The notes under the pieces: generated by a model
The model's input: the letters and a program-made list of their open reading frames with translations, nothing else
Database searches by the model: none
What the model was told of the DNA's origin: nothing
From: Nitrospiraceae bacterium
GTDB lineage: Bacteria; Nitrospirota; Nitrospiria; Nitrospirales; Nitrospiraceae
Length of the DNA stretch: 64,000 bases
Assembly: GCA_051293815.1 (NCBI GenBank)
Contig: JBPKLU010000003.1
Location: 327,426-391,425 of the forward strand
Direction of reading: 5' to 3'
Program-made: the position numbers and the translations under genes
Shown: positions 8,324 through 59,602 of the stretch, one piece after another
Layout: each line of letters starts with the position of its first letter
Position numbering within the stretch: position 1 is the stretch's first letter

Positions 8324-8349
8324 CGCCGCATCAGAACGCACAGTGACCT

Positions 8350-41550: not shown

Positions 41551-42936
41551 TCAGAAATTGATCCGCAGGGTCAGGCTTCCGGCATTCGTTGTCGTCCGAT
41601 AAGTCCCATTGACGCCGGAATTGGGGTGGCCAGTGACCGTGCGGGGCTCAAACAGCAGAAGTTGATAGGCGAGGTCGAGTCCGATCGCCTTTCGGGTCAA
41701 CCAGCCGCCAGCGGCACCTTCACAGTCCACTACCCCGAGAACCCGTCCACCTTCCCGACAGAAAAGGCCGAGCCCGATCGACCACACATGCACGTCGGCG
41801 TCGGGGATGACCGGATTGTAATTCGCATCGGGGACGGGTGTGTGCGAACGGTTGTAGCCGGCACGGAGCGCCAGTTGCCAGGCTTCATGGTCTGGTAGAC
41901 GGAGCCACGTGTATTCCGTTCCCACGGCGATCGACACGCTATTGTTCCAGTGTTGCGGGTTGGTGATGACAGCGCCAGTGGAAAGGGCGACATCCACATT
42001 TCTCACCGATCGCCACCGGGTGTAGTCCACATCCACCTCGACCTTCCACGCGCGCTCGGCGTCCCGAAGAGGCCAGAGCGCCAGCCCCAGCGTCCAGACC
42101 TCGGGCAACAGGAAATTCGCGGAGGCGTCGGCGACCGGCGTTCCGTCGACGAGCAGTTGTCCGCGCACCGGCAAAACCGCTTGGCTGCGCCACACACCGG
42201 CAAGATTCACCCGCGGCCGGTCCGCCGTGCCAATGAGCGTGTAGAGCACGCTGGCGTCCAGGCCGGCGGTGGTGCCCTTGCCGTTCAACTCCACACGGCT
42301 GCCCGCCGGGATGCCGCCCGCGCCGGACGAAATGGACAGGCTTTCCGTTTGCCCCTCGCCGATAAAACTCGCGAACGTGAAGATGTCTGCACCGAGCCCG
42401 AGCGAGAGGCGATCCGAAACCTTGTAGGCCAGGGTGGGCTTGATGTCGAGCAGCGGAAGGCTGCCTTGGTAGCTTGTGGAAGAGAACGGCGCGCGTTCCG
42501 GGTACTTGTTGCCGAACCCATAGAGCGACAGCAGGCCCAATCCCAGACTGAGATCCCGCAGGACCGGCAGGCTTGAGCGTTCCAGGTTGGCCGTGAGATA
42601 CAGTTGGCCCGGCGGAGGCCAGCCGACCGGCCCGCCGAGATCGTTGGTCGTCTGCGCTCCGCTTGGATTCGTGAACCGGGTGTGGGGGCTGACGAATTGG
42701 ACGCCGACGGCGTGCTGGATCCCCCGCAGCCTCGTCATGGCGGCGGGATTGTAGAAGACCGCGGTCGGATCGTCGGCCTGAGCCGCAAACGCATTGCCCT
42801 GTCCGATGGCCGCCGAGCCTTGAAAAGGATTGCGAAAGCCGTCGGCATAGGCGGGAGACGCGCCCACGCCCCACACCAGCGAGACCCAGACCCAGCCTAT
42901 CAGACTTAGGAGACACCGTGCGTCGGGATCGCGCAT
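41551..42936 (-). CDS. fadL: FadL/OMPP1/TodX-family outer-membrane hydrophobic-compound channel
   Basis: Signal peptide, then ADGFRNPFQGSAAIGQGNAFAAQADDPTAVFYNPAAM, and a C-terminal ...LTLRINF ending in an aromatic residue. Start at ATG 42936. Confidence 0.8.
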   Translation of the reverse strand: MRDPDARCLLSLIGWVWVSLVWGVGASPAYADGFRNPFQGSAAIGQGNAFAAQADDPTAVFYNPAAMTRLRGIQHAVGVQFVSPHTRFTNPSGAQTTNDLGGPVGWPPPGQLYLTANLERSSLPVLRDLSLGLGLLSLYGFGNKYPERAPFSSTSYQGSLPLLDIKPTLAYKVSDRLSLGLGADIFTFASFIGEGQTESLSISSGAGGIPAGSRVELNGKGTTAGLDASVLYTLIGTADRPRVNLAGVWRSQAVLPVRGQLLVDGTPVADASANFLLPEVWTLGLALWPLRDAERAWKVEVDVDYTRWRSVRNVDVALSTGAVITNPQHWNNSVSIAVGTEYTWLRLPDHEAWQLALRAGYNRSHTPVPDANYNPVIPDADVHVWSIGLGLFCREGGRVLGVVDCEGAAGGWLTRKAIGLDLAYQLLLFEPRTVTGHPNSGVNGTYRTTTNAGSLTLRINF

Positions 42937-43033
42937 AGGGCGCGCATCGTACGAGAGCGATTTCCGCGGAGTCAAGGACTTGCCCTTAGGAGCCAAGTGT
43001 GAGACCATCATTGCCACCGCGGTCGGGAAGCCG

Positions 43034-46000
43034 ATGCCCGCACGCAACCTTACGCTGGCCAAGCTCGCGCGCCCGACTCTGCCTATCGTGCATGAGCGGA
43101 AGCGGCTGTTCCGCCTCCTCGATGCGGCGTGCAGGAGACCGGTCGTTTGGCTCACCGCTCCGGCCGGGTCCGGGAAGACGACGCTCGCGGCAAGCTACCT
43201 CGGCGCGCGGAGACTGCCTCACATCTGGTACAGCATCGACGCCGGTGATGGAGACCCCGCGTCGTTCTTTTACTATTTGGGGCTCGCTGGCAGGCAGGGC
43301 GCTTCCCGCCAGGCACGTCCGCTGCCCCTGCTGACGCCGGAATACCTGCCGGGCCTCGAGGCCTTTACCCGCAACTTCTTCCGTCTCTTTTTTGCCCAGA
43401 TCAAACGGCCGGGCGTCGCGGTGTTCGATAATTTCGAGCGCCTGCCGGAGGACTCGCCGTTGCATGACCTCCTGTCGATCGGGCTGGCCGAGACCCCATC
43501 CGGCGTCACCGTGATCGTGATCAGCCGCGCCGATCCTCCGGCCTCCTTCGCTCACCTGCTTGCATCCGGTTCGCTTGCCCTCGTGGGCTGGGAGGATCTG
43601 CGCCTGACCCAGCGTGAGAGTCTCGCGATCGGCCGGCTGCGGTCCCAGCTGAGCAGAGAGCAACTTCTCGCCCTGCATGAAGAAACGCAGGGTTGGGTCG
43701 CCGGCCTCGTGTTGTTGGTCGAACATGGCTCGCCTCGCGGGAGACGACGAACACGGGATCTCTCCTCTGGCCACTCGATGCTGTTCGACTATTTTGCGGA
43801 GGAATTGTTCAAGCGCGCGGACGCTTCGACGCGCGCGCTGCTGCTTCAGACGTCTCTCCTCTCCAAGATCACGGCTGAGGCGGCCCGACAATTGACCGGA
43901 ATCGAACAGGCCGAGGCCTTGCTGAACGGACTGGTGCGGCGCAACTACTTCACCTTCAAGCTCGCCGGCCCGTCCCTGACCTATGAATACCATCCGCTGT
44001 TTCGGGCTTTCCTGCAGTCCCGCGCCCGTATCGCTTATTCCCCACCGGAGCTGAACCGCCTGCGGCGCCGGGCGGCGGCGCTGCTCGAAGCCGACGGGTT
44101 CGTCGAAGACGCTATCGCATTATTGATTGAAGCCGGCGATTGGGACAGGCTGATCCGACTGGTTCTTCTGCAGGCGCCGGCGATGGCTGCCCAGGGCCGC
44201 AGCCAGGCCTTGGCGCAGTGGATTCAGGCCGTCCCGGACGAGATGCGCGCAGGGACACCGTGGCTCCGCTACTGGCTGGGGACTTGCCGGCTGCCGTTCA
44301 ATCCGGTCGAAGCACGAACGCACTTCAATGGGGCACTCGCGCTGTTCGAGAAGGCGAACGACCCCGCCGGTTCATATCTTGCCTGGCTGGGTCTCATCGA
44401 AAGCGTCTTTTTCGAATGGCGGGATTTCGTCCAGTTCGATCGGTGCAGGGAGCTGTTCGACGACCTCCGCCGCCATTATCCGGAATATCCATCACCCGAG
44501 ATCGAGGCTCGCATCACCTTGGCAACCTTTACGATGCTCATCAACCGCTGGCCCGATCACCCGGACCTTCCCTCGTGGGTTGCAAAAGCCGAAGCGCTGC
44601 TCTGGTCAGAGGCGGACATCAACACCCGCCTGATGCAGGCCAACCACCTGTTGTATTACTGCATATGGCTGGGGGACCTTGCCAAGGCAAAGCACCTCAT
44701 CGCCGAGATCCGGGCGGAATGGGCGAGGCAGGACATCGCGCCCCTGACCCGCCTCTGGTGGCACGCCTCGCTGGCGATCGTGTACTGGCACACGGGGGAC
44801 ATCGAACAGGGTTTGCGCGAAGTCGAGGAAGGACGCAGGCTGGCCGACGCCACTGGCATCCGTATGGTCGAGATTCAACGCCTGGGCGCGGAAATTTTCC
44901 TATTCCTCATCCAAGGCGATGTCGAGGCGGCCGAGCGCCGGCTTCATCAGACATCCTTTGCCCTCCGCCCCCAGAGTCTGCTCGACGGCTCGTACTATCA
45001 TCACCTCGCCTCGATAGTGGCTCTGCACAAAGGCCAAGTGGCCCACGCCGAAGAGTGCGCGCAGTCCGCCCTGAGGATGGTCAGGGCCAGCGGCATGCCG
45101 TTCGGCGAAGCAATCTGTCTTATGGCTTCCGCGCGCATTGCGTTGGAGACAGACCAGACGACCCGCGCACGGGATGCGCTAGACGGCGCGCGCCGGATCG
45201 CCCGCGCCATCGGCAGCCGATCCCTCGAATACATGTGCGACCTCACGGAGGCGGAGCTCGAATTCTCGGTGCAGCGAGAGCCGGAAGGATTGGCCTTACT
45301 CCGGCAAGCCTTGCGCCTCGGCAAAGCCCTTGGCCTCGCCGTTCTTCCGTGGTGGACGCGCGATCGTATCGCCCGGCTGTATGCGCGCGCGCTCAATGCG
45401 GGGATCGAGCCCGCCTATGTCAAGGAGGCGGTTCGGCGGCATGCCCTCGCGCCGCCGGCCGACATTCCGGCCGACGACTGGCCCTGGCCGATCAAGGTCT
45501 ATACCTTGGGACGTTTCGCCGTGGTGAAAGACGGCACGCCCCTTCGATTCAAAGGTAAGACCCAGCGCCGCCCGCTCGAGCTGCTCATGGCGCTGATCGC
45601 CCTAGGTGGGCACGGGGTTCCGCTCGAGAAATTGACCGACGCGCTCTGGCCGGACGCCGACGCCGACGCCGCCTATCGAGCGTTCACTGTGGCGCTGCAT
45701 CGGTTGCGCCATCTGCTTGGGTCGGACACCGCGCTCAGACTCACTCACAACCGCCTCACCCTCGAGCCGCGCGATGTCTGGGTCGATGCCTGGGCGTTCG
45801 AACGCCTGCTCAATGCCGCTGAACACGACAGCGAGAAGGCGGACATCGCCTCGTCGGCCGGCAAGGTGCTGAGCCTGTACCGTGGCCGGTTCCTCGACGG
45901 AGTAGACGCACCGTGGGTCCTCTCGTCGCGTGCGCGGTTACAGACCCGATTCCTCCACTTTGCGATCGTGCATGCTCGGCGCTTGATACGAATGGGCCTT

Positions 46001-46276
46001 TACGATCAGTCCGTGACCCTGCTCGAACAAGGTCTGGCCGCCGACGATCTCGCCGAGGACCTGTATCTGGAGCTGATGCGCTGTTATCAGGCCCAGGACC
46101 GTCCCGCCGAAGCGCTGGCGGTGTATCATCGTTGCCGGCAGGCGCTCAAGGCCGGGCTTGGCCTTGCGCCGAACCCGGAGATCGAACGGCTCCGCCAGAC
46201 GTTGCAACAGCCGAGTGTCGCCCGTGGCGACCACCGGACTGGCTCCACACCCGACATTCCCTCTACCTCCGCCTGA
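43034..46276 (+). CDS. large STAND-type transcriptional regulator: MalT-like P-loop NTPase + TPR-like repeats + C-terminal SARP (wHTH + BTAD)
   Basis: N-terminus LTAPAGSGKTTLAASYL...WYSIDAGDGDPASFFYYL is MalT-like. The C-terminus matches SARP/BTAD: YTLGRFAVVKDGTPLRFKGKTQRRPLELLMALIALG...LYRGRFLDG...LMRCYQAQDRPAEALAVYHRCRQAL. Start at ATG 43034. Confidence 0.8.
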   Translation: MPARNLTLAKLARPTLPIVHERKRLFRLLDAACRRPVVWLTAPAGSGKTTLAASYLGARRLPHIWYSIDAGDGDPASFFYYLGLAGRQGASRQARPLPLLTPEYLPGLEAFTRNFFRLFFAQIKRPGVAVFDNFERLPEDSPLHDLLSIGLAETPSGVTVIVISRADPPASFAHLLASGSLALVGWEDLRLTQRESLAIGRLRSQLSREQLLALHEETQGWVAGLVLLVEHGSPRGRRRTRDLSSGHSMLFDYFAEELFKRADASTRALLLQTSLLSKITAEAARQLTGIEQAEALLNGLVRRNYFTFKLAGPSLTYEYHPLFRAFLQSRARIAYSPPELNRLRRRAAALLEADGFVEDAIALLIEAGDWDRLIRLVLLQAPAMAAQGRSQALAQWIQAVPDEMRAGTPWLRYWLGTCRLPFNPVEARTHFNGALALFEKANDPAGSYLAWLGLIESVFFEWRDFVQFDRCRELFDDLRRHYPEYPSPEIEARITLATFTMLINRWPDHPDLPSWVAKAEALLWSEADINTRLMQANHLLYYCIWLGDLAKAKHLIAEIRAEWARQDIAPLTRLWWHASLAIVYWHTGDIEQGLREVEEGRRLADATGIRMVEIQRLGAEIFLFLIQGDVEAAERRLHQTSFALRPQSLLDGSYYHHLASIVALHKGQVAHAEECAQSALRMVRASGMPFGEAICLMASARIALETDQTTRARDALDGARRIARAIGSRSLEYMCDLTEAELEFSVQREPEGLALLRQALRLGKALGLAVLPWWTRDRIARLYARALNAGIEPAYVKEAVRRHALAPPADIPADDWPWPIKVYTLGRFAVVKDGTPLRFKGKTQRRPLELLMALIALGGHGVPLEKLTDALWPDADADAAYRAFTVALHRLRHLLGSDTALRLTHNRLTLEPRDVWVDAWAFERLLNAAEHDSEKADIASSAGKVLSLYRGRFLDGVDAPWVLSSRARLQTRFLHFAIVHARRLIRMGLYDQSVTLLEQGLAADDLAEDLYLELMRCYQAQDRPAEALAVYHRCRQALKAGLGLAPNPEIERLRQTLQQPSVARGDHRTGSTPDIPSTSA

Positions 46277-46466
46277 ATCGACCGCCACACACCCCCGGGC
46301 ACAAGGTGGAATTCCGCCCGCCGCCCCCTGCCGCCGCACAACTCACGTCGTTCTCGCGTCTTTCCGTCCAGCGGGATCGGTAAGTCATCGGTAAGGGCTT
46401 CTCCGGTAGGATACGCGCGTTTTTCATCACGGCAGCGTCCATCGACCGTTGCGATCCGGTGTTTGG

Positions 46467-46673
46467 ATGGAGTCGTACATCGTGCGCATCTACCGCCGCG
46501 GCCGCAAGGACGGTCTCGCCACGAAAAGCCGGGCAAGACACCTGGTGGGAACGGTCGAGGACAGCGAGGGCCGACGCCGGGCGTTTCACAGCAGTGCCGA
46601 GCTGTGGGAGGCGTTGTGGTCGAAGCTCGGCAGGCAGCGCGCCTCAGGTGACCGGCGGGGGAAAGGCCAGTAA
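46467..46673 (+). CDS. small conserved hypothetical protein (YIVRIYRR-type N-terminus)
   Basis: MESYIVRIYRRGRKDG...LVGTVEDSEGRRRAFHSSAELWEAL. I recall this pattern from small ORFs in other bacteria, but have no family name for it. Confidence 0.45.
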   Translation: MESYIVRIYRRGRKDGLATKSRARHLVGTVEDSEGRRRAFHSSAELWEALWSKLGRQRASGDRRGKGQ

Positions 46674-46708
46674 GAACCCGTGTCCAGTTTGCGGAAGAGG
46701 AGGCCCTT

Positions 46709-47962
46709 ATGACTCGCCGCATGCGTTATCCCACCGTACCCGTGATCGTCGCAGGCTTGCTCCTCGCCTTGGCCGGTTGCGAAGACCTGATGAAACACCT
46801 GCCGGCCGGCACGGATCGCTACCTTCAGACAGGGATGTCAGTCGGCAGCGCCGTCATGAATCGGCCGACCTTCACTGAAGCCGATGAAGAGCGGATGGCG
46901 CAGGAGAACGCGAAGAAGTATGAGAGCAGCCACCAGTTGTGGGACGATCCGCTGCTCGCCACCTATCTGAACGACGTCGTCCAGCGACTCGTCGCGCAAG
47001 CCCGTCCCCGTCCGTTTGTCTACAGCATTCGCGTCGTCAACGATGCGAGCATCAACGCCTTCACGTTCGGCGGCGGGCTCCTCTACGTCAACGCCGGCTT
47101 GCTTGCCCGCATGGAAAACGAAGCCCAATTGGCCATGGTCCTCGCGCACGAGATCGCGCACGTGACAGAAAGCCACGTGACCAAGGGCATCGAAGGCAGT
47201 TACGGCATTCAGGTGCTGGGCCAACTGGCCGCGCAGGCAGCCGAGACCAGCGGCAAGGTCACACTCCCGCCTGCGTTGTTGCAAAAAACCTACGAGTACT
47301 CGATGAAGGCCGCCATCAGCGGCCACGGCCGCGCCAGTGAAACCGAAGCCGACGTCGTGGGGCTGGAGTACATGGTCAAGGCCGGCTACGACCCGCGGGA
47401 GGCGCCGAAGACGTTCGAGCAACTCCTGAAAGAATACGGCGATCAGGGCGCCCTCGAAAACTTCTTCTACGGCGACCACCCGACCAACAAGTCACGGATT
47501 GCCAAGCTCACCGGCTTGGTCCAATCGAAATACAGCCAGGATTTGGCAAGCCGGAAGCTTCTGGTGAATACCGACGAGTTCAACCGGCGGACGCGCGAGC
47601 TGGTGGTGAATGTCGGCAAGCTGGACTACGACCGCAAGCGGTTTAAGACAGCCGCAGCGATGTTTGAAAAAGCGCTGGCGGCGAAGGACAACGACCCCGT
47701 GTTGCACTACTACCTTGGAAAGATCGCACTGGAAACGGAAAGCGGTCCCGAGGCCTCCAAGCGGGCCATCGGACATTTCGTCGCCGCGATCAAAGCCAAC
47801 GAGGCATTCGCCGACGCCTATAGAGAGATGGGGCTCGCGTACTACAAAATGGGGGACCGGAAAACAGCAATTGAAGCTTTCGAGCGGTACCTGGCGCTCA
47901 ATCCTCATGCTAGTGACGCCGACCGGATCCGGAAGTCCATAGAGGACCTTAGAGGTTCTTAG
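46709..47962 (+). CDS. M48-family Zn metalloprotease with C-terminal TPR repeats, lipoprotein (BepA-like)
   Basis: Lipobox LALAGC, HEIAHV (HExxH), and C-terminal TPR-like AAAMFEKALAAKDNDPVLHYYLGKI...AFERYLALNP. Confidence 0.85.
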   Translation: MTRRMRYPTVPVIVAGLLLALAGCEDLMKHLPAGTDRYLQTGMSVGSAVMNRPTFTEADEERMAQENAKKYESSHQLWDDPLLATYLNDVVQRLVAQARPRPFVYSIRVVNDASINAFTFGGGLLYVNAGLLARMENEAQLAMVLAHEIAHVTESHVTKGIEGSYGIQVLGQLAAQAAETSGKVTLPPALLQKTYEYSMKAAISGHGRASETEADVVGLEYMVKAGYDPREAPKTFEQLLKEYGDQGALENFFYGDHPTNKSRIAKLTGLVQSKYSQDLASRKLLVNTDEFNRRTRELVVNVGKLDYDRKRFKTAAAMFEKALAAKDNDPVLHYYLGKIALETESGPEASKRAIGHFVAAIKANEAFADAYREMGLAYYKMGDRKTAIEAFERYLALNPHASDADRIRKSIEDLRGS

Positions 47963-48148
47963 CAGCACAACGCTGAAAACCCAGACCCCTGACGAGCGAA
48001 CGTGACAAGAGACGAAAGGAATATGCGGTATCAGTGTAGCGATTATGACGAGTCCGAGGCGCAATTGTACAGCTTCCGTGACCCCGTCAGACGGAAGGTC
48101 ATAACGGCTGCCATCAATGGTACTGTTTACGTACCTATCCTTGAGTTG

Positions 48149-48164
48149 TGGCAAGAGATTTGGT
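48149..48164 (+). promoter_or_regulatory. candidate sigma-54 (-24/-12) promoter upstream of the paralog island
   Basis: TGGCAAGAGATTTGGT has GG and TTG at the correct 11-nt spacing, but the -12 element is GG rather than GC. It lies about 115 nt upstream of the P1 start. Confidence 0.25.
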
Positions 48165-48276
48165 TAGCCGCCAGAAGGGCAAGCCTCGGTCTGACGAAAC
48201 CAAGACAAGCTCTCAGAAGTCAGTGTCCAACCCGGACTCGCCCCAAAAACGATTCACTGTTTCAAAGGAGGCCACG

Positions 48277-48942
48277 ATGCTGTCTCTAACTGCCAACCAC
48301 TTAAAACTCTATCAGGGATCTTGGTTCGTGATTCTGCTGTGCTCACTGGTCCTTCTGCTTATTCCCCCATTAGTGGATCCCACCTATGCAGGAAGAGCCG
48401 AACGTGTGAAGAAGTGCGCAACAAAAGGGGACGCGCGCGTCAGTAAGAGCATTTCTACTAAAGTGGTTATGCATGCGATCGAGAAATATCAGATCGAGGA
48501 CCTGGTGGATAAAGAGGACATCAAAGCCGCAAGAAAGGAGGTGTATGAATTTCTCAAGTGGAAGCTCGGCAACCCGTCTGCGATCTGTGCAGAGTACATA
48601 GGCTCGGGATTAAGGCACTTTAAAAGAGCCTACTCAGATGAGGCCGCTGCTGCGTTGCTCGGCTATACACTTCCGGGGAAAAACGGGGCCGAAATTCAGT
48701 TACCGAAGGAGCTGGCCGAGGCGCTAAAGCAGTCTTACAAAGAAGCCGGTGACAGTCTTGCCAAGACCTTACAGGATGAGTACGGGATACCACCCGAAGC
48801 CACAGGCCTTGTGGTCGACGCCGTCAGGAAGTACGCCGACAAAGCGACTGACAACTTGGGATTCAACGTGCCAAAGGGGTGGGACTTCGACAACAAGTTA
48901 CTTGACTTGGAAATCAAGCTGAAACGCAAAGCGAAGGCATGA
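48277..48942 (+). CDS. secreted/anchored protein, paralog 1 of an uncharacterised family
   Basis: AGGAGG RBS. N-terminal hydrophobic anchor, then AGRAERVKKCATKGDARVSKSI...FLKWKLGNPSAICAEY...AYSDEAAAALLG, shared with the next two ORFs. It lacks their long charged tail. Confidence 0.7.
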   Translation: MLSLTANHLKLYQGSWFVILLCSLVLLLIPPLVDPTYAGRAERVKKCATKGDARVSKSISTKVVMHAIEKYQIEDLVDKEDIKAARKEVYEFLKWKLGNPSAICAEYIGSGLRHFKRAYSDEAAAALLGYTLPGKNGAEIQLPKELAEALKQSYKEAGDSLAKTLQDEYGIPPEATGLVVDAVRKYADKATDNLGFNVPKGWDFDNKLLDLEIKLKRKAKA

Positions 48943-48967
48943 TGATTAAGCCACTGGGGAGGAGACA

Positions 48968-49834
48968 ATGGACGCCATGATTTCCCCGGTGAGTTCGAAA
49001 GGTCTCTTTCATGTGGCCCGTTTCGTAGGAGCCGCGCTTCTGCCGTTGTGCTTCTCGCTCCATAATCCAAGCCTTGCTGTAGCGGGCGAATTAGAGCGAG
49101 CTGCCAAATGTTCGACCAAGGGCGATACCAAGGTGAGCAAGAGCATCGCCCAAAGGGTGGTCAAGTATGCCATAAAGAAATACGAAATTGCCGATTTGGT
49201 GGATGATGCCGGTGTGAAGAATGCGCGCAAGCAGGTCTACGCCTTTCTGAAATGGAAACTCGGCAATCCCTCCGCCGTCTGCGCCCAATATATAACGGCT
49301 GGGCAGAAGCATTTCAACAAAGCCTACAGTGATGAAGCGGCCGCCGCCTTGCTGGGGTTCGATCTTCCCGATGAAAAAGCAGGGCGCGCTACTTTTCAAC
49401 TCCCGCCCGAACTGGTCGATTTCTGGATGATGACAGAAAAACTCCAGAATACTGGCAAGGCCTATGTCCTCCAGTACTACTATGGCATACCCGCGTTCCT
49501 CACGAAACAGATTTTGGACACGCAGACTGAGTTGACAGGGAAAGTGCTCAAGAAGGTGGGCTTCAACATCCCTAAGAAATACGACTTCCCGAATGAGACA
49601 GTGTTGGTGACAATTGAAGCTAAGAGGAACCCAGAGCAAGCCAGAGCCAAGTTCCAAAAAGTCATGGATGATGCAGCAAAGCAGGAACAGGCCCAGGTTC
49701 AGCCAAGTGGGCCTTCAACTAAATCCCCCAGCACTGTAGGCGAAGAAGAGGGTGAAGAGGAAGAAGACATGGGGGAAGAGGGAAGCAAGGAGACCAAGAA
49801 GACTAAAAAGACCAAGAAGAAGCTTCCTTTTTGA
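48968..49834 (+). CDS. secreted protein, paralog 2 (acidic-then-basic C-terminal tail)
   Basis: Signal-like N-terminus, then ERAAKCSTKGDTKVSKSI...FLKWKLGNPSAVCAQY. The tail is EEEGEEEEDMGEEGSKETKKTKKTKKKLPF. Confidence 0.75.
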   Translation: MDAMISPVSSKGLFHVARFVGAALLPLCFSLHNPSLAVAGELERAAKCSTKGDTKVSKSIAQRVVKYAIKKYEIADLVDDAGVKNARKQVYAFLKWKLGNPSAVCAQYITAGQKHFNKAYSDEAAAALLGFDLPDEKAGRATFQLPPELVDFWMMTEKLQNTGKAYVLQYYYGIPAFLTKQILDTQTELTGKVLKKVGFNIPKKYDFPNETVLVTIEAKRNPEQARAKFQKVMDDAAKQEQAQVQPSGPSTKSPSTVGEEEGEEEEDMGEEGSKETKKTKKTKKKLPF

Positions 49835-49978
49835 ACGCTCTTATCAGGATCGAACAGCAACCACTAGTAATGAGGAGATCCTGAATAAATCAAAACGGGC
49901 CTCAAACTGGAGATTCCGCTGAACCGTAAGGCGTGAATCGAAAATGAGCGCGCCGCTTGAGCGATGGAGGTGAGGGAC

Positions 49979-50833
49979 ATGATCACCTCATATATTTCAA
50001 AGGGTCTGTCTTGTCGAGCTATGGCAATCGTCGGCATCGTTGGATTCGTGGCTTGGTTCCTACTGACTGCCGATGCGGCCTTTGCCGGCAAAGCGGAGCG
50101 AGCTGCAAAGTGTGCCACAAAAGGCGATGCGAAGGTGAGCAAGAGTATCGCGAAAAAGATGATCAACCATGCCATTAAACAATACGAGATTGCGGACCTT
50201 GTGGATGACCAAACGGCGAAACGTGCTAAGAAAGAGGTCTATGCCTTTCTCAAATGGAAACTGGGTAACCCTTCGGCGATCTGCGCGCAGTATGTCACGG
50301 GGGGCCAAAAGCATTTCAATAAAGCATATGGAGACGAGGCGGCCGCCGCATTGCTCGGTTTCAACCTGCCGAATGAAAAGGCCGGCCGTGCAACTTTTCA
50401 GCTCCCTCCCGAGTTGGTTGACCTCTGGGTGATGACGGAAAAACTAAAGAACGCGGGCAAGGCCTATTTGCTTCAGGCGTTCTTCGGGATCCCGCCCGGA
50501 TTATCCCGTCTAGTGCTCGATGAAATCACGGAACAGCAGGGAAAAGTTATTAAACATCTGGGATTCAATATTCCGAAAGACTACGACTTTCCGAATCAAA
50601 TGGTTCAGGCGACGATTGAAGCCAAGCGCAATCCCCAACAGGCCAAAGCGAATTTCCAGCGTGCCGTCGATGAAGCTGCAAAGCAGGAACAGTCCCAGGC
50701 TCAGGTGGGTGGGCCTACGGCTCACACTTCTGACATTCTAGGTAACGAAGAAGGAGAGGAAGAGGATATGGAGGAGGAAGGAAGCGAGCAGACTAAACAG
50801 GTTAAGAAGAAAAAAAAGAAGCTTCTGTTTTGA
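49979..50833 (+). CDS. secreted protein, paralog 3 (acidic-then-basic C-terminal tail)
   Basis: A GGAGG RBS precedes ATG 49979 (the track starts at 49964). Roughly two-thirds or more identical to paralog 2 by eye. The tail is NEEGEEEDMEEEGSEQTKQVKKKKKKLLF. Confidence 0.75.
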   Translation: MITSYISKGLSCRAMAIVGIVGFVAWFLLTADAAFAGKAERAAKCATKGDAKVSKSIAKKMINHAIKQYEIADLVDDQTAKRAKKEVYAFLKWKLGNPSAICAQYVTGGQKHFNKAYGDEAAAALLGFNLPNEKAGRATFQLPPELVDLWVMTEKLKNAGKAYLLQAFFGIPPGLSRLVLDEITEQQGKVIKHLGFNIPKDYDFPNQMVQATIEAKRNPQQAKANFQRAVDEAAKQEQSQAQVGGPTAHTSDILGNEEGEEEDMEEEGSEQTKQVKKKKKKLLF

Positions 50834-50889
50834 AGACCAATAACGAGAGAATTACGTGACATGCAATCATTGGGATGAGGAGGTCATAA

Positions 50890-51861
50890 ATGAATCACCA
50901 TGGAGATCGAACAAGGGTATTTTTCCAGAAAGCGATGAGCCTTAGAGCGATCGTGCCGGTGAGCTTTCTGGTGCTAACCTGTTGCATGGCCCAGGTCGAG
51001 GCTGGAGCACGACCACAACCAGAGGATGCGAAATCACCACAGGGGGTGACACGAGCCAGCGAGCAGTCGGCTCACTCTCAAGTTTCATCCACTCAGCCGA
51101 ATACCTTGACTATCGCAGGTCACGTCTCTGACCCTGTGCAAGAGGGAAGAATGCTCCTCGGCAAGACATCGCCTGAATCCAGGGCAAAAAAGTCTAAAGA
51201 AAAGTCTAAAGATAAGGGCAACGCCCCAACCAAGCGCCTCGACGCCTCCGCTGAAGAAGAGGAGGAGGAAGAAGAGGAGGACGAGGAAGAGGACGAAGAC
51301 GCAGCGGATAGCTCCGAGAAGGGTTCAGGTGGATTGGGTTCCTACATGATTCAGGCGGATTTCGACAAAAACGTCGCGGCCACGCTGAAAGACGTGGTGG
51401 TTCGGGGCGCCGTATTATCCGCGACGGTATCCCTCACTTATCAAGGCGGCAAAGACAAGAAACATTCGGAATGGCTGAGAACCAGCGAAGAGGGGAAATA
51501 TACCCACCTGTTGGACTATGCAACAGGCACCACCTATCCGATCAAGAAACTCGACGGATTTACCTCCGGCACACTCAACCAAGGCCAGGATGTGAAGACC
51601 CTCCGCGCGACGTTCGAAGCGCCACCCAAGAACGTCAAGACGGTCGCCATTACCATTTATGGCATCGGCACGTTCGACGATGTCACACTCGGCAGCGGCA
51701 TGTCGGGAAGAAATCCGAAGATCAAGGGAAGCAAGACCTCCTCACCCGGCTCAGAGTCGGAGGAAGAAGAGGACGAGGAAGAGGACGAAGAGGAGGAAGA
51801 GGAAAATGAGAAGAGCCTGGCAGGGCAAGGCCAAAAGGCATCAGGGGGAAAGGGCCGGTGA
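50890..51861 (+). CDS. secreted protein with a beta-rich core flanked by two poly-Glu/Asp tracts
   Basis: GAGGAGG RBS and signal-like LRAIVPVSFLVLTCCMAQVEA. Acidic runs EEEEEEEEDEEEDED (nt 51253-51300) and SEEEEDEEEDEEEEEENE (nt 51754-51810) flank the core VVVRGAVLSATVSLTYQGG...TVAITIYGIGTFDDVTLG. Confidence 0.7.
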   Translation: MNHHGDRTRVFFQKAMSLRAIVPVSFLVLTCCMAQVEAGARPQPEDAKSPQGVTRASEQSAHSQVSSTQPNTLTIAGHVSDPVQEGRMLLGKTSPESRAKKSKEKSKDKGNAPTKRLDASAEEEEEEEEEDEEEDEDAADSSEKGSGGLGSYMIQADFDKNVAATLKDVVVRGAVLSATVSLTYQGGKDKKHSEWLRTSEEGKYTHLLDYATGTTYPIKKLDGFTSGTLNQGQDVKTLRATFEAPPKNVKTVAITIYGIGTFDDVTLGSGMSGRNPKIKGSKTSSPGSESEEEEDEEEDEEEEEENEKSLAGQGQKASGGKGR

Positions 51862-51895
51862 CGGCGGAACACACAGAACAGAGGGATCTGCGCGA

Positions 51896-52705
51896 ATGAA
51901 CCGCTGGCTCCAAGTAGGACTCAGCGTCACGATTTCCATTGCTCTGGCACTGTCGGCAGCGCGTCCCGCGTCCGCCGACCAGGCGCTGGATACAGCCATT
52001 GACAATGCCGGCAAGTACACCGCGTTTGTGTTTCTGGTCAACGGGTTCACCGGCTGCTGCATCCCCGGCGAGGAATTCCAAAAATTCCTGCGCGAGAAAG
52101 GGGCCTATGTCCACATCTCGAACTGGAACGAGATCGACCGGAAAGGGAACCCCGGCGTGCCGGCGGTGGACCCGGACAACTTCGCCTGGAAGGTCACGCC
52201 TTCTCCGCCCACCGACGAGACCTTCATCCAACAAATGCAGGACGTCATCAAGAGGATCGACGCCAAGAACCCGTCCATCCCAATCGTCCTGATCGGTCAT
52301 AGCTACGGCGGGGACGCCGTGCTGCAGGTCACCAAAAGAATCCACGACAGGAAGATCGCCTTTCTCGGCGTCCTGGATGGCGTGGGGAAAGGAGGATTGC
52401 GGAAGAACATCACCAAGCCGGTGCCCGACAACGTCGAATATTTTTTCAATCGCTGGCAGCAAAACCCGCCCTTTGCCGGGGATCATTTCATTCCGTTCGA
52501 TCGGCTGCTCTCCGGCAAGATCGAGAGCCGCGCGGGGGAAAGCAACCAGAAAAAGCAGAACACGGAAAAGACCGGTAGGTGCAAGCGGAAGTATCGGGAT
52601 CCGGTCAAAGCGATTCCCCAGTTGTTGTCGCATGGAGAAGTTCCCAAGGACAAGTGCATCCAAAAGAAGATGAAGAAGATCCTCGCTCAGCGGGTATTTT
52701 CCTAA
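51896..52705 (+). CDS. secreted alpha/beta-hydrolase (lipase/esterase-like, GHSYGG)
   Basis: Signal peptide MNRWLQVGLSVTISIALALSAARPASA, then FVFLVNGFTG and IVLIGHSYGGDAV nucleophile elbow. Start at ATG 51896, inside the longer track ORF. Confidence 0.6.
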   Translation: MNRWLQVGLSVTISIALALSAARPASADQALDTAIDNAGKYTAFVFLVNGFTGCCIPGEEFQKFLREKGAYVHISNWNEIDRKGNPGVPAVDPDNFAWKVTPSPPTDETFIQQMQDVIKRIDAKNPSIPIVLIGHSYGGDAVLQVTKRIHDRKIAFLGVLDGVGKGGLRKNITKPVPDNVEYFFNRWQQNPPFAGDHFIPFDRLLSGKIESRAGESNQKKQNTEKTGRCKRKYRDPVKAIPQLLSHGEVPKDKCIQKKMKKILAQRVFS

Positions 52706-53182
52706 ATTTGTCTGCGCCGAATCCCAGAGCTTCATCTCGGGGCATCTCCGTGGTTCGCCTGACGTGAGAAACTTCTGGTTCTGGGTGGCGGAATCTGGCT
52801 GTTGGTCGCCAGGCTGTTTCTTGCAATCGGGGTTTTCTGTCGGAATCCAGCGGGCGAGCGCGATCGACCGGCGGGAGAAGGAAGGTCGAAGCGGTGGAGA
52901 GAAAGCTCGTCCGCGGTGAGGCCCAAGGACCGGAAGGTGTTTGGGGCCCACTCGACGAACGCGGCCCGATTCAGGTGACCCACCAGCCAGATCGGCTGGA
53001 CACGTATCGGGTGGCCGACCAGAGCAGAGGAGACCTCATCTTACTCTTGATCTTCAGCGCCTCGGCGGGTTCGTCGTCTTCAACCCCCTCAGTAAAAGAA
53101 CGCGCGAGAACGTGCTACGCCGTAGCAGCATGCTCGTGGAGGCGGCAGTCATCGCATCGTTTCCGCCCATATCCGCAGCATC

Positions 53183-54070
53183 ATGTCGCCGGATAAGGCG
53201 GGTCATTGGCTCCAGGACCACACTGGCAAGGTGGGGGACGAGATGCGCAGTCGCGTGTCAGTATCTGGATCAGCAGAGAGTGAAGATGCCGGGCTCACCG
53301 ATTCTGAAATTGCTGAGTCGTTCGATCCCGCTGTGAGTCGGTATGGGTCAGCGGGATTGTCTTCGCCGTCGGCACCATGCTGGTCTGTGCGGGCGTTTCT
53401 AACTGGCAAGAACCGGAAGCGGTTCTATCGCGAAGCCGTTCAAGCCCGGGCGGCGATCGGCACCTGTATTGCTTTGCTTGGTTTGCTGATCGGCCAACCC
53501 GAGCTGCGCCGCGCGACCGGTCGCCTGGCACGCATTGTCCTCCCGCATTTGGGACAAGATAGCGGAACGAACGAATTCCGAACAGTTCTCGCTTCGAGGG
53601 CTCAAACAGGCCTGGAAATCCGGCGCCGTCTGGTGACGACCATCCTCGCGTTGATCACGGTCGCCGGCTTCTTCGGGTTCTTCGTGATCATCGAACCGCC
53701 GTGGGTCAAAGTCCTCGTAGGCGGCGCGCTGCTGGACGCCGCGGTGTGCCTAGCCGCTGGAGTTCCAGCGGGCTTGATTCGCCCCTCCGTACGTCTTACT
53801 CTTAACGACCTGCGCATCGCGCCAAACAACCCTCAACTTAAAGGGAGGAGAAAACACGATGTTTGCGCTCACACACGCCATGCTGCTCCCGATCCTGCTC
53901 GGAACCTTAATCGCCTCCTTGTCAGCCTGCACCTTGAAGGCGACTCTGGATACGACATCCGACGGTACCACCAATTTCTTGTCTTCCACCTCCGGCAAGA
54001 CTTGGTTCACCGAGGATGGATTGGTACGGGAGGAGTTGAAAGTCGAGGCATTCGCCTGGATGAACTATGA
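53183..54070 (+). CDS. hypothetical membrane protein (boundaries doubtful)
   Basis: 295-aa ORF with 3-4 hydrophobic helices. Its last 212 nt overlap the better-supported DUF3015 gene in another frame. Confidence 0.3.
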   Translation: MSPDKAGHWLQDHTGKVGDEMRSRVSVSGSAESEDAGLTDSEIAESFDPAVSRYGSAGLSSPSAPCWSVRAFLTGKNRKRFYREAVQARAAIGTCIALLGLLIGQPELRRATGRLARIVLPHLGQDSGTNEFRTVLASRAQTGLEIRRRLVTTILALITVAGFFGFFVIIEPPWVKVLVGGALLDAAVCLAAGVPAGLIRPSVRLTLNDLRIAPNNPQLKGRRKHDVCAHTRHAAPDPARNLNRLLVSLHLEGDSGYDIRRYHQFLVFHLRQDLVHRGWIGTGGVESRGIRLDEL

Positions 54071-54278
54071 GAACCTAAAACAGGACATGGCGCGAGGCGG
54101 CGGAGAATATCTCTCGTCGCTCGGCACGTTGATGAACGTGCCTCCCGACCGGCAGACGGAGTTCCTGGCCTTCGTTCAGCAGCGATATCCGATGCTTGTG
54201 GGCAATGACCGAACAACCCCCGCGACGATACTGGCGGCCTTGCAACAAGAATGGGCAGCGCGGTCAGCGCTTCAATGA
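53859..54278 (+). CDS. DUF3015-like lipoprotein
   Basis: Strong RBS AAGGGAGGAG, lipobox LSAC, and ...NYENLKQDMARGGGEYLSSLGTLM..., as I recall for DUF3015. Confidence 0.65.
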   Translation: MFALTHAMLLPILLGTLIASLSACTLKATLDTTSDGTTNFLSSTSGKTWFTEDGLVREELKVEAFAWMNYENLKQDMARGGGEYLSSLGTLMNVPPDRQTEFLAFVQQRYPMLVGNDRTTPATILAALQQEWAARSALQ

Positions 54279-57200
54279 CCGAGCCGCGTCGATAGAGACC
54301 ACCGCCGAAGCCGCACCGGCTGTGACAACCATGCCATCACGGAACACGACAAAGTGGGACGGGTGGGCCGGCACGCGCGGCCCCGGCAGGATGATGCCGG
54401 CCAGGTTCAACGGATCGGCGGCAGACAGTTTGATCTCCTGACTGGACTCGCCGCTGCCACCGCTCTTTCGCAATGCTCGCAGCGATTCCACCGCTTCCGG
54501 CAAGGCAAACTGCTCGCCAGTGAAGCCGCTGACAAACCGCCCGCCACGCACCTCGCCTCGCAATTCGAGCCGCCGATACTGGACCAACAGATCCCGCCAC
54601 GGGAGACTGAGCGATTCTCGCCCGAGCAGGTCACGAAAGACGATGCCATAGCGATGGAGCAACTGGCGGGCCACCCGTTCGATGATTGGGTCCTGAGTGC
54701 TGAGTGTTGAGTGCTGAAGTATCGGCGCTGACGGCTGATGGCTGATGACTGATACGTCCGAGCCGGCGTTACCCTGCTGGTCGCCGCTCGCTGTTGGCCG
54801 GCTGTCGGGTTCTCGCAGCAGCGCCCACCGTCCAGCCGCGTGGCGCGGCCGTCTCATCCGCTCGCGCCCTTCCGCCCGCCGGCGCCGCGGGTCCAGGAGG
54901 GCTCGCAGGTTGTCGAATCCATCTGCCGTCACCAGTCCGGCCGCAACCAACTCCCACAGGCCGTCCTCGACCTGTGACGGCAAATGTCCGGTGCCCCGGA
55001 CCAGATCGGCAAAGAAACTCGCACCGCGCTCCCGCAGGTGCCTGTAGAGATCCTGTGCCACCGCGCTGAGGCCCGAGGCGTCGTCCGACTGGCGGCATTC
55101 CTCTCCGAACGCCGCCAGCAGCCAGACCGCTTCATCGCGCGGGAACAGGCTGATTGGGGCCACGCTGGTAGGAACGATGCGCTGCCCGCGTCGGCCGGGC
55201 TCTGTTTCCCCTCCATCGGCCAAACGCGGATGTGGCGAGAGTCGTCCCCAACTCACGGCCCCGCTGAGACAGAGCCGATCCAACAGTTCCGGCTCGTACT
55301 TGGCCATCCGGACCCGCAGGATCTGCGATTCCCAGGCCGACGCGGCTGCCTCGAACCCAGCCAGTTGCTCAATGATCTTCAACAAGCCTAGTTCCCCATG
55401 TTGGCGCGAACCCGGCGCCACATGTTGCCATTGCAACAGGAACCGCATGAATTCGGCCGCGGTCACTGGTTCGATCTCTTTCCTGAGACGAGCAATCGTG
55501 AGCCGATGGATGCGGGCCAAGAGGCGACGATGGCACCACTCGACCGGCGCAACCTCAGTTGTGCCGGAGTGCTGAGTAGGGAGTGCTGAGGGCGGAGCTG
55601 GCCGGAATCGCCCGCGGAGGACTTGGCCTTGAGATTCCAATCTGAGCAGCGCACCTGTGACCGCATCGACAGAAAGGTGTAGCCGTCCCGCCAATTCCGC
55701 CGCCGTCGTCGGACCGATGCTTTCCATCCAACCCAAGACGATGGCGTTCAACGCCGCTTCATCACTGTCACCGAACGCGCGTTCGACCGCTGCACGATGC
55801 TCCGTCGCCACCCACCCGCTCACCCCGTGAGGGGCAAAGGAAATGGCGCGGCCTGATTCAACGAGCATCGGCAGATAGTGCGTCCATCCAGGGGCAATGG
55901 GTTCAGGTACCCAGATCAGCGTCAGCAACGCATCGTGCAGTTCGTCGGCGTCGCGGACGACGGGCCAGGCTTCCTCGATCACCTCCGCGATGGCCGCAGG
56001 GTCCAACGCGCCCACCTTCCCGGCCAGGTCCGGCGGCAACGTGCGTCGCATTTCGACCGCGCGGGCGCGCCGTTCTTCCAGCGGCGCATCGTCTAGGTAG
56101 GCGTAGGGATTGGCGTTGAGAATCTCGTGGCTGAAGGGCGAGGGAACCGGCGTGTCGACCGCGACGCAGCGGATCTCGCCCCGCTCGATCCGCTGCAGCA
56201 CCGCGATGAGCCCGTCAAGGTCCATCGCCTCGGTGAGACAATCCCGCACGGTTTCCTTGACCAAGGGATGATCGGGAAGATCCCTCGGCGCATGCGGATC
56301 CCGCATATTGTCCTGGCACGCCAACGCCGCCGGGAACACGGCGGCCAACAGGTCTTCCGCGCGCATCCGTTGGATCTGCGGCGGCACGCGCTTGCCATTG
56401 GCGAACCGGAGCAACGCTAGCGCGCGGGTGGCGTTCCAGCGCCACCGGCTGGCGAACATAGGCGCCGCGAGTATTGCCTGTGTGAGCACCTCGCGCACGG
56501 ATTCCGATCGCACGAAGCCGAAGACGCTCTCCAGAGGAAAACTGTGCCGCTCGCCCAGTGAGATCACGATGCCTTCGTCCGTCGCGGCAGCCTGGAGTTC
56601 AAAATCGAAGGTCACGCAGAAACGCTTGCGGAGCGCCAAGCCCCAGGCGCGGTTGAGACGACTACCGAACGGCGCATGAATGACCAACTGCATCCCACCG
56701 CCCTCGTCGAAAAACCGCTCGGCAATAAGGGTCTTCTGAGTCGGCACCGCGCCGAGAACTTGCCAGCCAGCGAGGATATACGCGACCGCCTGCTCCGCGC
56801 CACGGCGGTCAAGGCCGCATTCTGCTTGAAGCCATGTAAGCAGTGAGGGGTCAGGGGGGGCTCGTAACGGATCCACTGAGAACTGATCGCTGACCGCCGA
56901 AGCATTCAGCCGCCCCGCGATCTCTTGCCGGAGCGACGCGACTTCAGCTGACAGCTCCGCAGTGCGCGACGGGGCCTCGCCTCGCCAGAACGGGATAGTC
57001 GGCGGGGCGCCGTGCGCGTCCTCTACCCGCACCTTGCCCGTCTCCACGCTGCGAATGCGCCAGGAAGAATTCCCCAGCAGGATAATATCGCCGGCAAGGC
57101 TTTCAACCGCGAAGTCCTCATCGACCGAACCGACCACGGTTCCGTCCGGCTCGGCGATCACCGTGTAATTGGCTGTATCCGGAATGGCGCCGCCCGACGT

Positions 57201-58766: not shown

Positions 58767-58853
58767 GTGTCCGGATGTTACCATGCGAAACACACGGCAC
58801 TCCACCTGAGCCGTCCGGCTCGGTTTTTACCAACGTTGTTGCTGAAGGTCAGA

Positions 58854-59273
58854 TCAGGATGCTGAAGACGGAGGGCCCGATTCGCTGACTGTCAGGACCC
58901 CGCGCATGATCGGATGCAGCTTGCAGTAGTATCCGTAATTTCCAGGTGGCAACCCGGGCAGCTCATAGCTGCCGTCTGGCGGAACAACGCCGGAATCGAA
59001 CAGACAAGGTCCACCTGTCTCGCAACTCTCGTGGGTGATCGTGTGATGGGTACCGGTCATGTTATACCATCTGACCGGTGCGTGCGCGGACACTGTCGCG
59101 GCCTTCGGAAGGAAGTACGGTGCCCCTCCATCGATCGTGATGGAATACGGAGCGGAGGGAGCGGCCACCACCGCCGCCGCGGCCAGCAGCCACACCCCCG
59201 CGCCGACGCAAGCAAAAGGAAATGCAAACGGCGTTCCGGCGAGATTCTTGTTCTCAGGCGGCCTTCTTGACAT
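58854..59273 (-). CDS. amicyanin/pseudoazurin-like type-1 copper protein (cupredoxin), membrane-anchored or secreted
   Basis: N-terminal hydrophobic segment, a His ligand region GTHHTITHE, and C-terminal YYCKLHPIMRGVLTV (C-x2-H-x2-M as in amicyanin). Start at ATG 59273. Confidence 0.8.
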   Translation of the reverse strand: MSRRPPENKNLAGTPFAFPFACVGAGVWLLAAAAVVAAPSAPYSITIDGGAPYFLPKAATVSAHAPVRWYNMTGTHHTITHESCETGGPCLFDSGVVPPDGSYELPGLPPGNYGYYCKLHPIMRGVLTVSESGPPSSAS

Positions 59274-59433: not shown

Positions 59434-59602
59434 AGAGCACCTCCTCCCATACGAGGTTATGGCGGTCGCTGGGACGCTAGATAATCACAGTTCTCGAACA
59501 GTAAAGAGACGGCGATCCACCGGATAAAAACGGCCGCCAGTCCAATGACTTCTGGTTGCCGGGCTGAAAAACAGGCCCGAGGTCGGAGGCAAGGAGTGGA
59601 AT

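Follow-up and report, generated by a model that had tools for sequence, protein, structure and literature searches.

A gene cluster for orphan exported proteins with a swapped cassette in uncultured Nitrospiraceae, tentatively read as an envelope protease, helical-protein and lipase module

The locus described here raises the question whether a run of five adjacent genes, all coding for apparently exported proteins and four of them seemingly outside any described family, is an island that has moved in from elsewhere or a part of a conserved function of the cell envelope. It lies in a stretch of 64,000 nucleotides (nt) from Nitrospiraceae bacterium (assembly GCA_051293815.1, contig JBPKLU010000003.1, positions 327,426 to 391,425 of the forward strand), which is called the window throughout and whose numbering is used unless another locus is named. 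The original prediction, which was made from the sequence alone, described an A/T-richer five-gene island of secreted products with extreme charge or no recognisable domains. Our answer, to which we give a probability of about 0.45, is that the region is a conserved extracytoplasmic module of a protease, helical proteins and a lipase, with a variable cassette that recombines among uncultured Nitrospiraceae, and that it is not a mobile island. In any case the region is a well-defined and conserved cluster of envelope genes, with protein families that are orphans and a cassette cleanly exchanged between relatives, and the genes of one of these families, here called P, are repeatedly linked, across distant metagenomic lineages, to M48/TPR protease genes and to lipase-like genes of differing ancestry. 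The five genes and the protease gene that precedes them are listed below with lengths in amino acids (aa).

46709-47962, + strand: M48/TPR lipoprotein protease with a LAGC lipobox, an HEIAH motif and C-terminal TPR; conserved left anchor of the locus
48277-48942, + strand: P1, 221 aa, short P-family member without a charged tail
48968-49834, + strand: P2, 288 aa, long P-family member, an extra copy relative to the related locus L003
49979-50833, + strand: P3, 284 aa, long P-family member
50890-51861, + strand: acidic protein, 323 aa
51896-52705, + strand: hydrolase, 269 aa, putative divergent secreted alpha/beta serine hydrolase with the motif GHSYGGD; conserved right anchor

The open reading frame (ORF) coordinates bear out five co-directional genes with gaps of 25, 144, 56 and 34 nt, in that order. 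The start of the hydrolase gene was placed at 51896 (MNRW...) and not at 51659, because all of its homologues begin there and are about 269 aa long; the longer ORF from 51659 overlaps the acidic gene. A GGAGG-type ribosome-binding site, which had been claimed for every gene, is present in front of four of the five, namely AAGGAGG for P1, GGGGAGGAG for P2, GGAGGTGAGGG for P3 and GAGGAGG for the acidic gene, but the hydrolase gene has only AGAGGGA. As had been said of each product, all five begin with a hydrophobic segment, and this is followed by an AxA-type site (TYA/G, AVA/G, AFA/G, VEA/G and ASA/D, the stroke marking the presumed cleavage), so that all five probably carry N-terminal export signals; the sites were judged by eye from the translations and alignments and not by a predictor. 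The charges are indeed extreme, with an isoelectric point (pI) of about 9 for the mature P1-P3 and 9.5 for the hydrolase, and a pI of 4.7 with a net charge of -20 for the mature acidic protein. None of the five products has a match above threshold in Pfam or NCBIfam, and PADLOC and PHROGs gave no match for any of them; the claim of no recognisable family therefore stands for P1-P3 and the acidic protein, the hydrolase remains below the thresholds, and clear profile hits to characterised families were found for none. A scan for sigma-70 promoters and terminators scored at or below chance and gave no signal, and Rfam had no match inside the island.

Six longer contigs carry the locus, of which L003 and L007 are from NCBI metagenome-assembled genomes (MAGs), L010 is from a Nitrospiraceae MAG, and L002 and L008/L009 are from JGI metagenomes. 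Their gene content, in which X stands for a second type of secreted protein, is as follows.

L003: M48/TPR protease, P (84% identical to P1), P (81% identical to P3), acidic protein, small acidic ORF, hydrolase, two DUF3592 genes, DUF3015
L002: M48/TPR protease, P, P fragment, acidic protein, small acidic ORF, an extra protein with an HEFLH motif, hydrolase fragment
L010, backbone as in the window: MFS-acyltransferase-AMP ligase, FadL, regulator, small ORF, M48/TPR protease, then after the slot hydrolase, DUF3015, Lhr
L010, slot: secreted X protein, acidic allele of 45% identity, 148-aa secreted disordered protein of Lys, Asp/Glu and Lys blocks
L007: X-type cassette; the contig begins inside the M48 gene
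L008/L009: X-type cassette

The order M48/TPR, P, acidic gene and hydrolase is the same in L003 and L002 as in the window, and L017/18 have M48/TPR, P, P and the acidic gene in order on contigs that end before any hydrolase. The neighbourhood therefore recurs in other genomes and metagenomes, and it is not peculiar to the window. The notion of the five genes as one unit did not, however, survive the comparison with L010. By blastn the window and L010 match on the left at 38832-40867 (91%) and 41542-47933 (92%) and on the right at 51964-52706 (95.6%) and 53695-60000 (83-88%), and there is no match over 47934-51963. The left end of this unmatched segment is 29 nt before the M48 stop codon, and its right end is 68 nt inside the hydrolase gene, where the match resumes at codon 23. 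It thus comprises P1-P3, the acidic gene and, of the hydrolase gene, no more than the codons of the signal peptide; the hydrolase and M48 genes belong to the conserved backbone. From the left junction to the start of P1 are positions 47934-48276, and the intergenic leader of P1 is 314 nt; similarity to the P-type locus L003 begins at 48142. The breakpoints differ between genomes, as the right-hand match to L007 begins at 51272, inside the acidic gene. The acidic gene of the window and its L010 allele share 45% aa identity although the flanks are about 92% identical in nt, and their synonymous sites are saturated, as against a synonymous divergence (dS) of about 0.2-0.26 in the backbone. Cassettes of the P type are found in the window, L003, L002 and L017/18 and those of the X type in L010, L007 and L008, which is discordant with the similarity of the backbone, where the window is closest to L010 and L007. 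P and X were also considered as remote homologues, and this was rejected because hhalign gave a probability of 0.2% that they are related. As the breakpoints lie inside conserved flanking genes and cassette type does not follow the backbone, the exchange between close relatives indicates that old alleles were swapped by recombination in the conserved flanking genes, in a pattern that suits homologous recombination, and not that a mobile element was inserted.

The linkage of P genes was followed beyond these relatives. A metagenome scan with a trimmed P alignment gave 25 further loci, whose neighbourhoods were scored by tblastn, a scan of genome collections gave at least three distant P loci (two in Terriglobales and one in a MAG labelled Bacillota), and look-ups of single homologues also fed the scoring. 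In 13 distinct contexts the P block has an M48/TPR gene no more than 2 kb away. Nine contexts include a lipase-like hydrolase in the P cluster, and these enzymes fall into three kinds, the window type (window, L002, L003 and L039), a PGAP1-like/DUF7379 type by Pfam (L014, L015/16, L024/25 and L034) and a Lipase_3 type (L001). The P genes usually occur in tandem, a short type together with a long type, and in L014, L024/25, L030 and L035 they are followed by a gene for a secreted protein of about 524 aa. No cultured organism was among the homologues of P2, the acidic protein or the hydrolase that were found, and literature searches found nothing on this cluster and nothing relevant on DUF3592, DUF3015 or the combination of Nitrospira, M48 and lipase. 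Because the linked lipases are non-orthologous, the linkage argues that P relates to lipolytic activity as such, and the linkage to M48/TPR, which holds for both P and X cassettes, speaks for a protease that works on, or together with, the products of the cassette. This protease matches Pfam Peptidase_M48 with an E of 2e-27 as well as several TPR families, and its PDB matches are 3c37 (E 3.6e-27) and BepA 6sar (E 2e-22). Since its score of 134 bits misses the NCBIfam BepA equivalog cutoff of 570, it is BepA-like in architecture and not a BepA orthologue. It shares 93% aa identity with the protein of L010 and 83% with that of L003.

P1-P3 are the three tandem paralogs that they had been taken for, P1 being 45% identical to P2 and P3, and P2 and P3 being about 64% identical to each other in a tandem repeat of about 1002 nt with 76-78% nt identity. 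P1 shares 84% aa identity with L003 9328-9987 at a ratio of nonsynonymous to synonymous substitution rates (dN/dS) of 0.09, and P3 shares 81% with L003 10001-10867 at a dN/dS of 0.16; between the same two loci the ratio is 0.11 for the M48 gene and 0.08 for the hydrolase gene. P1 and P3 are thus real genes under purifying selection, in line with their two neighbours. A word-indexed search of 5.8 billion clusters gave 51 relatives of P2, none with a functional name or a Pfam domain, an exhaustive profile search gave 88 matches among 1.84 billion representatives, and the longer members of the family have no recognisable fused domains. One relative, the P-family fragment P0007, comes from a contig of 1.1 kb to which NCBI gives the name of an archaeon, Nitrososphaera sp.; it is 73% identical to Nitrospiraceae proteins, and the label is for that reason probably a binning error. 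In the alignment G99, H115, F116, Y120, D122, A126, L128, P134, P175 and D206 are invariant, R44, G52, D53, W96, Q107 and E123 are nearly so, and two Cys are conserved in most of the proteins. An AlphaFold2 (AF2) model of P2, built with the family alignment, is all-alpha with nine helices and has a mean predicted local distance difference test (pLDDT) of 82, with 95-98 in the core. Foldseek found no neighbour of this model in the PDB (best E 1.2) or in BFVD (best E 0.53), and the P profile found nothing below E 0.08 among PDB sequences. With these results and the lack of any Pfam or NCBIfam match, a foldase of the Lif type was rejected as an identity for P. The C-terminus of the two long proteins runs from a Glu block through a Lys block to a terminal LPF in P2 (49756-49834) and LLF in P3 (50755-50833); the same tail is found in the homologues P0003, P0005 and P0014 and is missing from proteins of the P1 type, and its conserved layout looks like a C-terminal recognition tag. 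In L001 the Lipase_3 gene (7515-8465) and a P paralog (10001-10792) code for nearly the same first 45 or so residues, a signal peptide and EKGAKAVAKGAKGA, which suggests shuffling of an N-terminal module between an enzyme and a helical protein.

These tails also bear on an explanation in which P, X and the acidic protein are only clients or substrates of the BepA-like protease, for turnover or maturation, and the hydrolase is an unrelated neighbour. Adjacency to M48/TPR is the most frequent link of the P genes and holds for both cassette types, and TPR domains commonly bind C-terminal peptides, of which the Lys-rich ...LPF/LLF end shared by the long P proteins could be one. However, some hydrolase accompanies P even where M48 is absent (L001 and L039), and proteins of the P1 type have no tail, and we consider this explanation unlikely.

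The hydrolase was predicted as a secreted GHSYGG serine hydrolase, and the conserved residues agree with this. It has 39 relatives, and in an alignment of 29 sequences G134, H135, S136 and G138 of the nucleophile elbow GHSYGG are invariant (the family motif is GHSxGGD), D161 is invariant and H246 nearly invariant, which gives the order Ser, Asp, His, and we infer that Ser136, Asp161 and His246 form the catalytic triad. The same alignment shows a conserved N-terminal signal sequence and four nearly invariant Cys, C54, C55, C229 and C254. The Pfam scores lie under the gathering cutoffs, with 19.8 bits against 27 for Hydrolase_4 and 19.6 against 22 for Lipase_3, and in the PDB the profile match is confined to the nucleophile elbow (6tj2, E 1e-3). 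Because the curated thresholds are missed, the protein represents a new subfamily of the alpha/beta superfamily outside the curated families.

A secreted enzyme of this kind could also be an antibacterial or lytic lipase that crosses the periplasm of its producer, with P or X as the immunity protein or inhibitor and a cassette that varies by an arms race. Lipase_3 and PGAP1-like domains are also the folds of Tle2 and Tle4, lipase effectors of type VI secretion that often have tandem copies of a periplasmic immunity gene. Here P genes adjoin lipase-like hydrolases of three kinds and usually stand in tandem as a short and a long type, and the cassette is swapped between close relatives. Yet the hydrolases carry Sec signal peptides, and no gene of a type VI secretion system (T6SS; VgrG, Hcp or PAAR) is among the annotated genes at 37-59 kb or in the related loci. 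A toxin and its immunity protein normally co-vary, whereas the hydrolase is 95.6% identical in nt in L010 while P is replaced by X there. The folds of solved immunity proteins were rejected for P, as they are included in the PDB where its model has no match, and PADLOC has no match either. A toxin with its immunity protein is therefore an improbable account of the locus.

The acidic protein has 23 relatives, and those with a source name are from Nitrospiraceae MAGs; Pfam, NCBIfam, PADLOC and PHROGs gave no usable match. From the N-terminus it consists of a signal peptide, a disordered region, a Lys block, a Glu/Asp block (net -17), a beta-sandwich (150-266), a Lys segment, a second Glu/Asp block (net -15) and a Lys/Gly tail. 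The AF2 model shows a fold at 150-266 alone, where the beta-sandwich reaches a pLDDT above 90, and disorder elsewhere. The best structural match of the beta-sandwich is M. tuberculosis MPT63 (1lmi), with an E of 4e-3, a probability of 1.0, a template-modelling score (TM) of 0.46 and a root-mean-square deviation of 5.5, followed by adaptin-ear/GAE domains, and there is no sequence match to MPT63. A conserved LTCC near its N-terminus probably belongs to the hydrophobic core of a type I signal peptide and is not a lipobox; the small acidic relatives have no conserved Cys at this position. Between the acidic gene and the hydrolase gene four of the related loci have a small acidic ORF, which is not present in the window.

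L003, 11982-12446: small acidic ORF
L002, 12002-12472: small acidic ORF
L008, 9454-9873: small acidic ORF
L010, 10711-11157: small acidic ORF

The products are of 139-156 aa, exported and wholly of low complexity, with an Asp/Glu block set between two Lys blocks, and like the X family they have no usable match in the curated libraries. P, X, the acidic protein and the small acidic proteins thus appear to lie outside the described families. The slot of L002 also holds an extra 261-aa protein with the zinc-protease motif HEFLH.

The charged blocks admit another explanation, which goes back to the original prediction, namely that the locus is a cation, mineral or matrix module in which binding of Ca, Fe, Mn or mineral surfaces, or the building of an extracellular polyelectrolyte matrix, would fall to the poly-Glu/Asp proteins and the other proteins are accessory. 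This binding and the predicted polyelectrolyte scaffold are speculative, the charge pattern being compatible with a scaffold. The two Glu/Asp blocks of the acidic protein, the acidic blocks in the tails of P2 and P3 and the small secreted proteins of L003, L002, L008 and L010 would all serve this, and the layout of Lys and Glu blocks recurs in non-homologous proteins of the cluster. Against it, the acidic tracts are disordered and variable in length and it is the beta-sandwich and the P core that are conserved, P and the hydrolase are basic, and none of the loci viewed has linked genes for metal transport, mineralisation or exopolysaccharide. We hold this explanation to be as unlikely as the two preceding ones.

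The base composition, from which the notion of an island arose, divides the five genes. The three lowest in GC of the 64 1-kb intervals of the window are those at 48-51 kb (0.507-0.513); the next-lowest values are 0.563 (the adjacent 51-52 kb) and 0.565, and elsewhere the GC is 0.56-0.70. At third codon positions the GC (GC3) is 0.56-0.62 in P1-P3 and the acidic gene, as against 0.75-0.84 in the large flanking genes and 0.71 in the DUF3015 gene. The A/T-richer island is therefore real for these four genes and not for the hydrolase, which, because its GC3 of 0.77 is native, groups in composition with the backbone. Codons that end in A or T are more frequent in 16 of the 17 amino-acid families that were compared, the exception being Asn, and Lys makes up 9-12% of residues as against about 2% in the flanks, with Arg correspondingly low. 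The shift is thus partly synonymous and partly driven by amino acids (Lys), and it is not explained wholly by Lys and Glu content with normal codon usage. The cassette genes of L003, L002 and L010 are likewise Lys-rich and low in GC3, those of L007 and L008 more weakly so. In L001 one P copy with a GC3 of 0.56 stands beside two at 0.86-0.89, and because all of them have about 11-12% Lys, the Lys-richness is a property of the proteins themselves; the synonymous A/T bias seems to be left over from movement between genomes that differ in composition. No tRNA is present in the whole window, no att-like repeats were found at the cassette borders, no integrase or transposase is among the annotated neighbours (FadL, regulator, small ORF, M48, DUF3015 and Lhr), no relatives on viral contigs were found, and none of P2 or the hydrolase on plasmids, so that the predicted lack of an integrase, transposase or tRNA at the borders was borne out and extends to border repeats; on these grounds a mobile genomic island was rejected. 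That the segment is a foreign island recently acquired from a lower-GC donor, with no functional link to its neighbours, is largely refuted as stated and very unlikely, because, although the low GC3, the absence of the segment from L010 and the mixed GC3 of the L001 copies, which suggests movement of P between genomes, would suit it, every relative has genes in the slot, M48, P, acidic gene and hydrolase stand in this order in divergent lineages as well, the same composition recurs in the cassettes of L003, L002 and L010, the breakpoints lie inside conserved genes and signs of mobility are lacking.

In the module that we prefer to these explanations, the backbone consists of the BepA-like M48/TPR lipoprotein protease, the lipase-like hydrolase, which would be Sec-exported and disulfide-bonded, the DUF3592 membrane proteins, whose genes have decayed here, and DUF3015. 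In between protease and hydrolase, the slot holds one to three basic helical P proteins, or the unrelated secreted X protein in other strains, together with the acidic beta-sandwich protein with its alternating Lys/Glu blocks and sometimes the small disordered protein of Lys and Asp/Glu blocks. The products would act together outside the cytoplasm. In the periplasm or at the outer envelope, P would serve the protease and the lipase as binding partner, activator or chaperone, or be their substrate, and the target of the enzyme would be an envelope or external lipid ester. More speculatively, the polyanionic protein may tether the basic P proteins and the hydrolase (pI 9-9.5) electrostatically, and the TPR domain may read the Lys-rich ...LPF/LLF C-termini.

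Several observations weigh against this reading. The main objection is that L010, L007 and L008 keep a near-identical hydrolase and M48 protease with X in place of P, and because of this P cannot be an obligatory specific partner of the hydrolase, unless X is an analogue or P is encoded elsewhere in those genomes. The M48 gene is missing at about seven P loci with enough flank (L001, L004, L005/6, L012/13, L023, L031 and L039). Part of the cluster is dispensable, since the DUF3592 genes are pseudogenes here and deleted in L010. The operon is putative, with a gap of 314 nt before P1 and no promoter or terminator signal, the cleavage of the signal peptides was judged by eye, and the functional steps are drawn from gene order in uncultured organisms. 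A bolder form of the module reading, which we regard as improbable, is that P, M48/TPR and the lipase are an unrecognised multi-component envelope system, in which P, with a fold unmatched in the PDB and BFVD, would partner with lipase-type enzymes that are interchangeable and with the BepA-like protease. Block-polyampholyte tails of Lys, Glu and Lys blocks, carried by several non-homologous exported proteins, would drive the electrostatic assembly of these proteins at the cell surface or in the periplasm, and recombination would keep the cassette polymorphic; such a system would occur at low abundance in uncultured bacteria of soil, sediment and hot springs (Nitrospiraceae, Terriglobales and unassigned lineages).

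The other genes around the cluster are listed below.

42980-46276, + strand: MalT-like STAND ATPase with C-terminal SARP/BTAD (NCBIfam MalT E 2.2e-53, Pfam BTAD E 3.4e-25)
46449-46673, + strand: small Arg-rich ORF, 19% Arg, with ...YIVRIYRRGRKDG...LVGTVED...FHSSAELWEAL...; start codon uncertain
52767-53764, + strand: frame-broken remnants of two DUF3592 membrane-protein genes and a 187-aa gene, as tblastn fragments in different frames
53859-54278, + strand: DUF3015 protein (Pfam DUF3015 E 6.7e-17), conserved downstream neighbour

The original prediction had grouped the regulator, the small ORF and the M48/TPR protease with the five genes. It was right about what these genes are, but the regulator and small ORF are found upstream of the cluster only in the window and L010; in L003, L002 and L008 other genes take their place (the contig of L007 begins inside M48), and the regulator is for this reason outside the conserved module. 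The small ORF, which is 90% identical in L010 and has no family match in Pfam or NCBIfam, travels with the regulator and not with the cluster. Downstream, the remnants at 52767-53764 match L007 3898-4581 and 4584-5306 and L008 12567-13130 and contain no intact ORF. L007, L008 and L003 have intact copies of the DUF3592 pair and the 187-aa gene, L010 has lost the entire stretch, and because the genes are frame-broken here and deleted there, the downstream part of the conserved cluster is decaying in the lineage of the window. The DUF3015 protein is 82-84% identical in L010 and L007, and its gene converges with the Lhr helicase gene on the - strand with a 3' overlap of 15 nt at 54264-54278, an arrangement that is the same in L010 and L007. 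Further upstream, 37392-40883 (+ strand) codes for a 1163-aa fusion of an MFS transporter with acyltransferase and AMP-binding domains (the domains are from the annotation of the L010 orthologue), and 41551-43155 (- strand), which adjoins it, codes for a FadL-type outer-membrane fatty-acid channel. The fusion is presumably LplT/Aas-like and would serve the uptake and re-acylation of lysophospholipids; with FadL and the secreted lipase-like gene it hints at a theme of lipid salvage, in an adjacency that occurs only in the window and L010. Between these two genes, 41266-41381 (- strand) matches Rfam group II intron D1-D4 (RF01999, 65.8 bits, E 1.4e-11). Because domain V/VI has no match at E <= 0.1 within 40000-56000 and the intergenic region is about 400 nt longer than in L010 (674 against 275 nt), this looks like an intron remnant or an ORF-less insertion.

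If P does act in partnership with the protease and the lipase, the turnover of lipids and proteins in the bacterial envelope would gain a protein fold and a logic of accessory proteins that are both new, and a BepA-like protease would gain a role outside the assembly of outer-membrane proteins for which it is known from E. coli. The charge-block design that is common to unrelated exported proteins of one locus would be a tractable case for electrostatic scaffolding outside the cytoplasm, and allelic replacement at an envelope locus has a clear natural case in the precise exchange of cassettes between these two closely related Nitrospiraceae. To our knowledge there is almost no envelope genetics for Nitrospiraceae, that is, nitrite oxidisers and their relatives. 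As all of this is so far drawn from gene order in uncultured organisms, the practical value for now lies in a defined target for expression and biochemistry.

Of the known systems, BepA (YfgC) and the periplasmic M48-TPR proteases share with the window the M48 HExxH followed by TPR repeats, with 3c37 and E. coli BepA as the nearest solved structures. The window protein differs in its length (417 aa against 487), its lipobox and its BepA score, and in its linkage to P and X cassettes and a lipase-like gene, a linkage not known for BepA. The operons of the lipase-specific foldase Lif in Pseudomonas and Burkholderia resemble the locus in that an exported lipase-like enzyme stands beside an exported all-helical accessory protein, but P has no match to the Pfam lipase chaperone or to a PDB fold, has a cleavable-looking signal peptide in place of a membrane anchor, and can be replaced by X while the hydrolase is unchanged. 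The Tle/Tli pairs of type VI lipase effectors and immunity proteins likewise set Lipase_3 or PGAP1-like hydrolases beside tandem exported proteins; the hydrolases here differ in their Sec signals, in annotated neighbourhoods free of T6SS genes and in not co-varying with their neighbours. As for MPT63 and related Ig-like domains of secreted bacterial proteins, the acidic core at 150-266 is a beta-sandwich with 1lmi as its best structural match, at a TM of only 0.46; MPT63 lacks the long flanks of Lys/Glu blocks and has no sequence similarity to the core. The replacement-type flexible islands, such as O-antigen and surface-protein loci, differ in content, since the slot described here holds orphan exported proteins tied to a protease and a lipase-like enzyme, and no glycosyltransferases or known surface structures; they are like it in that the same slot has unrelated content in close relatives, with breakpoints inside conserved flanking genes, a lower GC and no mobility genes.

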